This document shows positions 25,606 through 26,320 of a stretch of DNA of 64,000 bases, piece by piece (positions within the stretch are counted from its first letter, which is position 1; the number at the start of each line of letters is the position of its first letter). The notes beneath the pieces are model-generated. The model was not told where the DNA came from and did not search any database. It was given only the letters and a program-made list of their open reading frames with translations. The translations under genes and the position numbers were made by a program. This stretch comes from an uncultured bacterium (GTDB lineage Bacteria; Hydrothermota; UBA3073; NMUJ01). Where the stretch lies: contig CBFDTI010000001.1 in the NCBI GenBank assembly GCA_965612795.1, forward strand, positions 1 through 64,000, read 5' to 3'.

Positions 25606-25660
25606 AGCCCAGGACCGGACTCGAACCGGCGACCTTCCCGCCAAGGCGGGATGCTCTACC
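25606..25660 (-). repeat. tRNA-Thr-derived copy (3' part) with anticodon arm replaced by a palindrome
   Basis: GGTAGAGCA-TCCCGCCTTGGCGGGA-AGGTCGCCGGTTCGAGTCCGGTCCTGGGCT; last 30 nt identical to tRNA-Thr 3' end. Confidence 0.95.
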
Positions 25661-25907
25661 GTTTTTGATGGCATATTAGCTCCTTGAATGCTCTACCTCC
25701 CTTGTAACGTTTCAATAAAGTCTCACGACGTCGAGCCTCCCTTAACGTATCGTACTTTTCATAATAAATCAACCTCAACGGGCGCCTTGCTTTCAGTGAT
25801 TTGGTCTTACCGCTGTTGTGCTCTTTTATCCGACGGTTCAAGTTCTTGGTAACCCCAATGTAATATCCATTATCCTTGAGGCTTTGCAGTACATATACAT
25901 AGTACAT
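25656..25907 (-). CDS. small GIY-YIG nuclease (UPF0213/SLX1-like), 83 aa
   Basis: MYYVYVLQS...YYIGVTKNLNRRIKEHNSG...EARRRE..LK; true start at ATG 25907. Confidence 0.92.
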   Translation of the reverse strand: MYYVYVLQSLKDNGYYIGVTKNLNRRIKEHNSGKTKSLKARRPLRLIYYEKYDTLREARRRETLLKRYKGGRAFKELICHQKR

Positions 25908-25916
25908 AAAACATAA

Positions 25917-25989
25917 AGCCCAGGACCGGACTCGAACCGGCGACCTCTTCCTTACCAAGGAAGTGCTCTACCCGCTGAGCTACCTGGGC
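25917..25989 (-). tRNA. tRNA-Thr(GGT), no encoded CCA
   Basis: GCCCAGG/CCTGGGC acceptor stem, anticodon arm CTTCC-TTGGTAA-GGAAG, GGTTCGAGTCC. Confidence 0.96.
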
Positions 25990-25997
25990 ATTTACTA

Positions 25998-26024
25998 AAT
26001 TTACATCAGCTTGTTTTATGTCAA
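25998..26024 (-). promoter_or_regulatory. promoter of tRNA-Thr/GIY-YIG
   Basis: TTGACA-N15-TAAATT, 8 nt before the tRNA. Confidence 0.75.
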
Positions 26025-26054
26025 CAATTTAAATCCACAAGTATTTATTTAATG

Positions 26055-26115
26055 GGACTCGAATCGGCGACCTTCCCGCCAAGGCGGGATGCTCTACCCG
26101 CTGAGCTACCTGGGC
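26055..26115 (-). repeat. tRNA-Thr-derived copy (5' part) with the same palindromic replacement, lacking the 3' acceptor strand
   Basis: first 26 nt identical to tRNA-Thr, then TCCCGCCTTGGCGGGA-AGGTCGCCGATTCGAGTCC. Confidence 0.95.
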
Positions 26116-26123
26116 ATCTACTA

Positions 26124-26150
26124 AATTTACATCGGTCTATTTCATGTCAA
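26124..26150 (-). promoter_or_regulatory. duplicated promoter in front of tRNA-like copy
   Basis: TTGACA-N15-TAAATT-TAGTAGAT, same layout as 25998-26024. Confidence 0.7.
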
Positions 26151-26186
26151 TAATTCACGACTTTCACAGTCTAAAGGACTTTTAAA

Positions 26187-26228
26187 GGGACTCGCACCGG
26201 CGCCCTCTTCCCACTGAGCTACTTGGGT
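26187..26228 (-). pseudogene. degenerate, internally deleted tRNA-Thr copy
   Basis: ACCCAAGTAGCTCAGTGG-GAAGAGGGCGCCGGTGCGAGTCC, preceded by decayed promoter TCGACA-N14-TAAATT. Confidence 0.8.
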
Positions 26229-26320
26229 ATAACCAAATTTACATCGACCCCTATATGTCGATATAAGTTACAAAACAAATTGACCATCCCCTAACCGCTT
26301 TATCTTTAATTTGTGCGTTA

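Follow-up and report, generated by a model that had tools for sequence, protein, structure and literature searches.

The described system closest to the locus reported here is the Ssn family of nucleases, represented by SsnA of Neisseria meningitidis, a single-domain GIY-YIG protein of 94 aa which binds the NTS hairpin repeat only as single-stranded DNA (ssDNA) and cuts a few nt upstream of it (Chenal et al. 2025, PMC11893778). According to the accessible parts of that paper, recognition requires the stem sequence and not the structure alone, hairpin repeats lie near 71% of the Ssn homologues and on both sides of 42%, and the authors liken the NTS-ssnA-NTS layout to a mobile element and, in their discussion, draw a parallel to hairpin-guided ssDNA elements. 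A second precedent is SegB of phages T4 and T6, a free-standing homing endonuclease of the GIY-YIG type that is encoded among clustered tRNA genes (PMC2330249, PMC13096335). In phage T6, as the accessible text of PMC13096335 has it, tRNA-Tyr-plus-segB units are amplified in tandem via cleavage and homologous recombination, with involvement of microhomology between the tRNA 5' end and the segB 3' end. Here we describe a locus on the minus strand of a 64,000-nt stretch of DNA from an uncultured bacterium (contig CBFDTI010000001.1, positions 1 to 64,000; hereafter the window), where the gene of an 83-aa GIY-YIG protein lies among pieces of a tRNA-Thr(GGT) gene (25606-26261), two of which carry a GC-rich hairpin in place of the anticodon arm. 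The locus is probably one copy of a small, Ssn-like nuclease-plus-hairpin cassette inside duplicated tRNA gene pieces, most likely selfish, long-lived and kept functional.

The likeness to Ssn concerns several features. The protein is a single-domain GIY-YIG protein of less than 150 aa, the domain covering the protein; hairpin repeats lie less than 500 bp to either side of the gene; the stem keeps its sequence while the loop varies; and the core of the palindrome, TTCCCGC-CAAG-GCGGGAT on the plus strand, stands beside TTCCCGC-GMAV-GCGGGAA for the NTS core as printed in PMC11893778. The hairpins of the present locus differ in lying inside disabled tRNA copies, and tRNA is mentioned 0 times in the main text of PMC11893778. 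With SegB the locus shares a GIY-YIG gene embedded among tRNA genes, nuclease-tRNA tandem repeats, an ORF whose 3' end runs into the 5' part or D-loop of a tRNA and, across the present family, the lack of a tRNA isotype preference. SegB, however, is a phage enzyme cutting double-stranded DNA, whereas a search of 2.9 million viral contigs with the 83-aa protein gave 1 weak relative, so that the present family is almost absent from them; hairpin-substituted pseudo-tRNAs are not reported in the accessible text of PMC13096335. Finally, short palindromes that are recognised in hairpin form also flank or accompany the small nuclease gene of IS200/IS605 and REP/RAYT elements, but there is no HUH/Y1 transposase at the present locus. 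To our knowledge, the GIY-YIG domain does not form the covalent intermediate needed for strand transfer.

The nuclease gene and the tRNA copies around it

The 83-aa protein belongs to the GIY-YIG superfamily by profile, residues and fold. The Pfam profile PF01541 matches residues 1-67 with 61.8 bits against a cut-off of 22.6 (E 7.6e-17), and Y3, Y5, Y16, R25, R26, H30, E50 and E62 are invariant across 12 homologues. The catalytic roles of the GIY and YIG tyrosines, the arginine, the histidine and the metal-binding glutamate are assigned from I-TevI and UvrC. An AlphaFold2 model based on the 12 homologues (pLDDT 89.5, pTM 0.78) comprises the GIY-YIG core, with the three-stranded sheet and helices of that fold, and nothing more, and its best Foldseek matches are 1zg2, At-HIGLE and Slx1, followed by the N-terminal domains of I-TevI and UvrC. 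The nearest solved folds and sequences are those of the UPF0213 proteins BH0048 (PDB 1zg2) and EF2693 (1ywl) and of the catalytic domains of SLX1 and HIGLE. UPF0213 proteins, among them B. subtilis YazA, are single-domain proteins of the same size and provide both the best solved sequence matches (E 2e-8 and 3.2e-8, respectively) and, at 37% identity, the best fold match. We know of no function of UPF0213 proteins and of no link between them and tRNA genes or hairpins. Matches in PADLOC and PHROGs were weak, partial and limited to the N-terminal motif, and those in NCBIfam were partial and below threshold. The protein is nearly absent from plasmids, the search of which gave 4 weak matches, none spanning 80% of the query.

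Comparison of the nuclease gene with its counterpart in a genome of the same genus (G002; the genome of the window is G000) reveals 16 synonymous and 4 non-synonymous differences. The dN/dS of 0.055 indicates that the gene is kept functional under strong purifying selection.

Read on the minus strand in 5' to 3' order, and with positions of the window, the locus consists of the following parts.

26236..26261, minus strand: decayed promoter-like unit of copy 1 (TCGACA, 15 nt, TAAATT), aligned with the units of copies 2 and 3; repeat D5
about 26187..26230, minus strand: copy 1, decayed and tRNA-Thr-like, 5' acceptor and D arm fused to the T arm, without anticodon arm and 3' acceptor; repeats D1 (61%) and D3 (85%)
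26124..26150, minus strand: promoter-like unit of copy 2 (TTGACA, 15 nt, TAAATT); repeat D2
26055..26115, minus strand: copy 2, tRNA-Thr from nt 1 to the T-loop, with the hairpin TCCCGCCTTGGCGGGA (26089-26074) replacing the anticodon arm, without 3' acceptor; repeats D3 (100%, 26 nt) and D4 (98%, 44 nt)
25998..26024, minus strand: promoter-like unit of the intact tRNA (TTGACA, 15 nt, TAAATT); repeat D2
25917..25989, minus strand: intact tRNA-Thr(GGT) (copy 3), the sole one in the genome; ARAGORN, Rfam RF00005, DNA fold z -4.34
25656..25907, minus strand: gene of the 83-aa single-domain GIY-YIG nuclease, ATG at 25907, stop TAG at 25658-25656; Pfam PF01541, E 7.6e-17
25606..25660, minus strand: copy 4, 3' fragment of tRNA-Thr from the D-loop to the 3' end, with the hairpin (25651-25636) replacing the anticodon arm; repeats D1 (31 nt, 100%) and D4

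Five of these elements had been pointed out in an earlier reading of the window made from the sequence alone (hereafter the sequence-only reading), namely the decayed copy, the hairpin copy, the intact tRNA, the GIY-YIG gene and the 3' fragment supplying its stop codon, and all five are there base for base. Its term anticodon-less is accurate for the copies, in which the anticodon arm is replaced or missing. Copies 1, 2 and 4 are in addition truncated, each missing one acceptor strand, and are therefore not whole tRNA mimics. Neither ARAGORN nor Rfam calls any of the three; the only tRNA called at the locus by either is the intact one (71.7 bits, E 3.3e-15 with the Rfam tRNA model). Apart from the tRNA, an Rfam search up to E 1 returned for the locus just a chance match to PYLIS_3 (19.6 bits; gathering score 38).

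The 16-nt palindrome TCCCGCCTTGGCGGGA stands in copies 2 and 4 where the intact tRNA has its 17-nt anticodon arm. These two copies are 98% identical across 44 nt even though they are not adjacent and stand 438 nt apart (repeat D4). Copy 4 is identical to the 3' end of the intact tRNA over 31 nt (D1), and the promoter-plus-5' parts of copy 2 and of the intact tRNA share 89% identity over 66 nt (D2). The nuclease ORF begins 9 nt past the intact tRNA and ends in the D-loop of copy 4, where GGTAG supplies the stop codon, so that identical palindromes sit 166 nt upstream and 4 nt downstream of it. The 14-nt palindrome CCCGCCTTGGCGGG occurs at two places in the 1.42-Mb genome, both at this locus; one further match with one mismatch is an unrelated terminator-like hairpin on contig C18. 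Folded as DNA and compared with shuffles, the intact tRNA reaches the z of -4.34 given above, and the two hairpin fragments reach -1.59 and -0.67, which is not significant; the 6-bp hairpin is present in both centroids. With a spacer of 15 nt, the promoter-like units of the minus strand escape a strict sigma-70 scan (spacer 16-18), whose 2 sites, against 1.9 expected, both lie on the plus strand.

The sequence-only reading had noted the lack of an integrase or transposase, and neither is found among the ORFs scanned at 22711-27479. An att duplication produced by an integrase was rejected as an origin of the copies, given that there is no recombinase and the element measures 0.3 kb. A functional tRNA with a 6-nt anticodon loop was rejected as well, since an acceptor strand is missing in both hairpin copies.

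Recurrence and turnover among relatives

A protein search of 41 genomes of the phylum gave homologues in 25 of them, at 67 places. The seven best places (59-100% identity) all lie beside a tRNA-Thr(GGT) sequence with CCCGCC-N2-3-GGCGGG in place of the anticodon arm, and this combination of nuclease lineage, hairpin and tRNA-Thr(GGT) is found again and again in the same class, WOR-3, where it spans at least four families. The hairpin stem is invariant across these relatives, and its loop reads TT, AC/GT, AT, TTT or CTC. A bare GIY-YIG domain protein is co-inherited with a GC-rich palindrome, (T/C)CCCGCC-N2-3-GGCGGG(A/G); the palindrome occupies the stem-loop position of a disabled tRNA copy, and one intact, separately promoted tRNA is always retained beside the cassette. 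The sequence-only reading had seen a single module in the intact tRNA, the nuclease gene and the tRNA copies modified by the hairpin, and as one module these parts recur, in the relatives just named as well as across phyla.

The order of the parts differs from genome to genome. G002 has a hairpin copy, the intact tRNA, an extra hairpin 3' fragment, the ORF and a hairpin 3' fragment. G018 resembles the window, with the tRNA 3' end, the ORF and a hairpin 3' fragment. G009 shows tRNA-Gly, a hairpin copy, the ORF, a second hairpin copy, a spacer and the intact tRNA, the stop codon of the ORF again lying in the D-loop of the copy that follows. G007 carries a remnant of the ORF tail fused to a hairpin copy, then the ORF and, beyond a contig break, the intact tRNA. 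The locus of G004 consists of a promoter, a 5' pseudo-copy with the hairpin, and an ORF running directly into the intact tRNA; G008 has the same kind of layout plus a tandem array of hairpin 3' fragments (period 90, at least 4 units, split across two contig ends). Copy number thus differs between close relatives, as the extra fragment of G002 and the array of G008 document, in line with the sequence-only reading.

Turnover is most evident in genus g7, where G017 has tRNA-Gly, 120 nt, tRNA-Thr and tuf without any hairpin and represents an empty site, G013 has the hairpin copy and the tRNA but lacks the ORF, and G009 has the full cassette. Likewise, G012 retains about the last 25 nt of the ORF beside the tRNA and one hairpin fragment, a deleted remnant of the cassette which is complete in G004 and G008. 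Presence/absence polymorphism at the same site in related genomes, a criterion for homing endonucleases, is therefore seen both in genus g7 and in G012 as compared to G004 and G008. The particular empty site that the sequence-only reading had in mind, a tRNA-Thr directly followed by the Mth938-like gene, was not found; the empty site that exists is that of G017, in another genus. In the G001 assembly, which is 87% complete, the tRNA-Thr locus, the DUF498 (Mth938-like) gene and the uridine kinase orthologue were all not found, and in G003 the DUF498 gene is located elsewhere with no tRNA nearby. The borders of the truncated copies lie at short distances from the hairpin: 5'-truncated fragments begin 9 nt before it in G000, G002 and G012, and 3'-truncated copies end 8-11 nt after it in G009, G013, G004 and G008.

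Three side observations concern these genomes. In G013 (L048, contig C15, about 1720-2020, minus strand), ~300 nt of short repeats of type ctgatacactgataatctggtactctgc lie between tRNA-Gly and the hairpin tRNA-Thr copy and occupy the position of the nuclease gene in the congener G009. A second cassette lineage of WOR-3 is situated at tRNA-Arg(CCT) (L018 in G019:C34, L059, L069, L076, L080), with the 20-nt palindrome CCTGCCTGCCGGCAGGCAGG inserted exactly between nt 23 and 24 of a spare tRNA copy; in G019 the ORF is flanked by two complete tRNA-Arg(CCT) genes. In G026 (L022, contig C2, locus 727-801), ARAGORN calls a tRNA-Stop(tta) directly after the GIY-YIG ORF. This is a copy of the neighbouring tRNA-Asp with the anticodon arm replaced by the palindrome TCCCCCGTTACGGGGGA, so such cassettes can yield false suppressor-tRNA annotations.

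A scan of one genome per species gave 554 relatives, the best 80 of which were examined. These 80 loci belong to Omnitrophota, Patescibacteria, Bacteroidota, Planctomycetota, Ignavibacteriota, Calditrichota, gammaproteobacterial metagenome-assembled genomes and others, and close homologues (54-65% identity) are dispersed over unrelated phyla. An intact tRNA lies within 300 nt at 53 of the 80 loci (within 100 nt at 45), on the same strand in all 53 cases. Among the 41 genomes of the phylum the corresponding figures are 33 of the 67 homologue places (25 within 100 nt), all 33 on the strand of the ORF, with neighbouring tRNAs of many kinds. Chance would place a tRNA that near in roughly 3% of cases, by arithmetic from 46 tRNAs in 1.42 Mb. 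CCCGCC...GGCGGG occurs within 350 nt of 25 of 73 homologues with at least 50% identity as compared to 6 of 74 below 50%, and its density is eightfold higher near the gene (0.34 per kb) than in the outer flanks (0.041 per kb). Other nuclease lineages have GC palindromes of their own which interrupt or remodel partial tRNA copies. The position of the palindrome varies, being the anticodon arm in the Thr and Asp lineages, the D arm in tRNA-Pro copies of Bacteroidota, and part of the T arm elsewhere.

A FastTree phylogeny was built from 125 proteins. The relatives contribute 46 of their 67 places, weaker, partial and stop-containing sequences being excluded, and the cross-phylum set contributes 79 of its 80 loci, all but L175. 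In this phylogeny the motif requires 9 changes (shuffled mean 27, minimum 20, 200 shuffles) and the identity of the neighbouring tRNA 46 (shuffled mean 66.5). Both values indicate clustering only, as kin share labels and the tree, based on 78 columns, leaves many forks open. The Thr-linked proteins of WOR-3 group in a single clade (9 rows, support 87, not starred) whose subclades track host families. The hairpin type tracks the nuclease clade, not the tRNA. The association of homologues with tRNA and palindrome, on which the sequence-only reading had staked its proposal, is hence present in the wider family.

Genomic setting and assembly

The genome is bacterial, with a transfer-messenger RNA, 46 tRNAs at one gene per anticodon, 44.8% GC, 1.42 Mb and an estimated completeness of 99.5%. 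It contains a second GIY-YIG domain in a 587-codon frame, presumably UvrC. The neighbours of the cassette are genes for a glycosyltransferase, a DUF498 (Mth938-like) protein, a uridine kinase and a 190-aa ORF without assignment. The latter (26907-27479, plus strand) shares 11 bases with the end of the uridine kinase gene and has no Pfam or PADLOC match. Downstream of the cassette of G002 (L035, contig C19, about 1500-1560, minus strand), the DUF498 gene matches just residues 57-115 of the window protein; this internal loss near the 5' end is either a truncated gene or an assembly fault. Elsewhere in the window, the genes for tRNA-Ser (TGA) and tRNA-Ser (GCT) stand one base apart (8550-8727, plus strand).

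The conserved Thr(TGT)-Tyr-Gly(TCC) tRNA cluster is found on another contig (C26, 14600-15460) with mutL directly after it. In relatives this cluster is followed by Thr(GGT) and either tuf or tRNA-Trp. Since mutL and not Thr(GGT) follows the cluster here, the operon that normally contains the Thr(GGT) gene has lost it in this genus.

Concerning the assembly, 25300-26450 is tiled by Logan contigs of run X1, which covers the locus best and is possibly the sample of origin. The contigs break only at repeats, and the listed pieces show 0 to 1 mismatches each, except for one of 73 nt over the tRNA (7 other letters) and for a variant of 26106-26225 at low depth. The locus was also assembled independently in the congener G002, at 86-92% identity. 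Misassembly, which the sequence-only reading had wanted checked by spanning reads, is effectively excluded by the recurrences in other genomes. Contamination by a single sequence is excluded as the source of these recurrences by protein identities of 59-64%. Variant joints from 26029 to 26275 (X1, side 30), from 26113 to 26273 and from 26172 to 25617 (X18, X2) hint at strain variation, though they are short-sided or come from relatives at 90-95%. In run X18, a marine-sediment metatranscriptome, contigs at 90-95% likeness cover 25631-25946 and with it the nuclease ORF; relatives of the gene may be transcribed, or DNA may have been carried over into the RNA library.

How the cassette may work and what else it could be

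By analogy with Ssn we infer cleavage, its strand, a role in duplication and transfer between genomes, as follows. The 83-aa protein would be a hairpin-specific nuclease of the Ssn type that binds the palindrome in ssDNA and cuts that strand a few nt away. A break at the hairpin would fall between arms homologous to tRNA, and its repair by recombination with neighbouring tRNA sequence could yield the duplications, tandem arrays, deletions and changes of layout seen among relatives. The working tRNA would be spared as a target because its anticodon arm has a different stem. After DNA transfer, recombination could settle the cassette at the same tRNA gene of a new genome, and adjacency to the tRNA promoter would spare the nuclease gene the need for its own promoter. 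The borders seen in truncated tRNA copies are near the Ssn cut distance, reckoned at ~7-8 nt from oligo lengths in the accessible parts of PMC11893778, and therefore fit cutting near the hairpin.

We thus expect the protein to work like an Ssn enzyme and do not claim it as a member of the Ssn family. It is not an enzyme of the SegB type, as it has no domain beyond the catalytic core and no DNA-binding part; SegB is larger and carries such a part.

Going further, cassettes of this kind might be minimal mobile elements without a transposase that span phyla, a bare GIY-YIG protein recognising the palindrome of the tRNA copy and cutting ssDNA 8-10 nt away, and the tRNA arms guiding recombination such that the cassette is copied within the locus and into the same tRNA gene elsewhere, one working tRNA being left. 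This extension is tentative, and on present evidence we would not bet on it.

Several observations speak against a selfish Ssn-like cassette. No intact tRNA lies within 300 nt at 34 of the 67 and 27 of the 80 homologue places, some of them at contig ends; the exact motif is present at just 25 of the 73 close homologues; and the tree of 78 columns has low resolution, 52 of its 120 inner branches being open. In G000 and G002, copy 2 ends 21 nt after the hairpin, not 8-11 nt. A nuclease that recognises only the hairpin finds no target in an empty tRNA gene, so that classical homing and the first invasion are not explained. The genome has just 2 hairpins, unlike the hundreds known for Ssn, and the flanks of the palindrome differ from the SRM in having GAC rather than GTC. 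The SRM pattern HGTCWYN(0-2)YYVSBRHN(0-5)WNVSBRGN(0-2)RNCYNB has 0 matches at the locus and 1 in the genome (both strands); the palindrome core alone agrees. Moreover, the best solved and plasmid relatives of the protein are UPF0213 proteins (BH0048, E 2e-8; yazA), and a table in the accessible part of PMC11893778 marks a Bacteroides genome as without an ssnA homologue, yet Bacteroidota carry close relatives of the 83-aa protein. The protein may therefore belong to a neighbouring family; among those with a name, UPF0213 is closest.

A useful resident gene would be expected equally well to show strong purifying selection and to form a clade tracking host families. This leads to a serious rival, namely a domesticated module in which nuclease and hairpin sites are kept for host benefit, either tuning recombination or DNA uptake at the locus, as proposed for SsnA and NTS in Neisseria, or allowing the tRNA gene to be amplified rapidly, as with SegB of phage T6. 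These precedents lend it substance, as do the low dN/dS, the single copy per genome, the single WOR-3 Thr-linked clade and the fact that the cassette contains the only tRNA-Thr(GGT) of the genome, with its own promoter and apart from the usual Thr-Tyr-Gly cluster. We nevertheless regard domestication as unlikely. The distribution is patchy, with any homologue at all in 25 of 41 genomes, and an empty site, a hairpin-only site and a deleted remnant exist among close relatives. The amplified pieces are disabled fragments and not working tRNAs, the close homologues are scattered over unrelated phyla, and PADLOC assigns no family, its two partial matches being weak (UzuA, E 3e-4 over 33 residues; PDC-S14, E 1e-2). 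The sequence-only reading, which suggested a selfish or defence module, is supported in part: the cassette is most likely selfish, and defence is unsupported.

The hairpin-bearing pieces might alternatively act as RNA, either as decoys for tRNA-binding factors or as processing or stabilising signals through which the nuclease mRNA is released from the tRNA precursor; we judge this very improbable. The replacement hairpin is indeed nearly equal in length to the lost stem-loop (16 versus 17 nt here, while G009 and the tRNA-Asp lineage have 17 nt), ARAGORN folds the G026 copy as a full tRNA, a promoter-like unit precedes each of copies 1-3, the ORF starts 9 nt after the tRNA and stops in a tRNA-like D-loop, and the RNA-library contigs over the ORF point weakly in the same direction, given that DNA can occur in such libraries. 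Yet neither copy 2 nor copy 4 has both strands of the acceptor stem, and a tRNA piece lacking one of them cannot form an RNase P or RNase Z substrate. The truncation points vary by genome, just ~10 nt on either side of the hairpin being always retained, and no Rfam family is found at the hairpin copies. The stem never covaries but is invariant, which argues for recognition of sequence rather than of bare structure. Mere coincidence would mean that a tRNA gene and its promoter were duplicated in tandem and are decaying in the ordinary way, and that a small gene unrelated to them chanced to land there. This would account for tandem units of about 126-133 nt with graded decay and for the lack of a recombinase nearby, but it is next to inconceivable because gene, hairpin and tRNA are found together in at least four families and also, with different tRNAs, in other phyla, because the hairpin is identical in two non-adjacent copies that are 438 nt apart, and because it tracks the protein clade.

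A selfish nuclease-plus-hairpin cassette therefore remains our preferred reading. The cassette itself is turned over and its nuclease gene is under selection. The nuclease-hairpin pair (Ssn) and the free-standing nuclease gene at tRNA genes (SegB) are of kinds already known. In the full-text literature searched, which covered few subscription journals, no account was found of small chromosomal GIY-YIG genes lying amid hairpin-substituted tRNA copies, and the cassette looks like an instance of a widespread and apparently undescribed kind of selfish DNA. New are the WOR-3 tRNA-Thr(GGT) lineage through at least four families, the series of empty, hairpin-only and full sites within one genus, the dN/dS estimate and the breakpoint distances.

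If this reading is true, a tiny, so far unnoticed element, selfish or possibly domesticated, resides at the tRNA genes of many uncultured bacterial phyla and of some cultured ones. It would explain odd partial tRNA copies, tandem arrays of tRNA fragments, assembly breaks at tRNA loci and false suppressor tRNA calls such as the tRNA-Stop(tta) of G026. It would also extend the hairpin-specific ssDNA nucleases of the Ssn type to a new genomic setting, in which pairs of nuclease and target hairpin can be identified by lineage and may be useful for ssDNA tools, and it would give the amplification of phage tRNA genes by SegB a bacterial counterpart that can be tested. Should the cassettes even be minimal mobile elements, they would represent a new mode of homing, for which tRNA genes serve as safe harbour, promoter source and homology arms at once.

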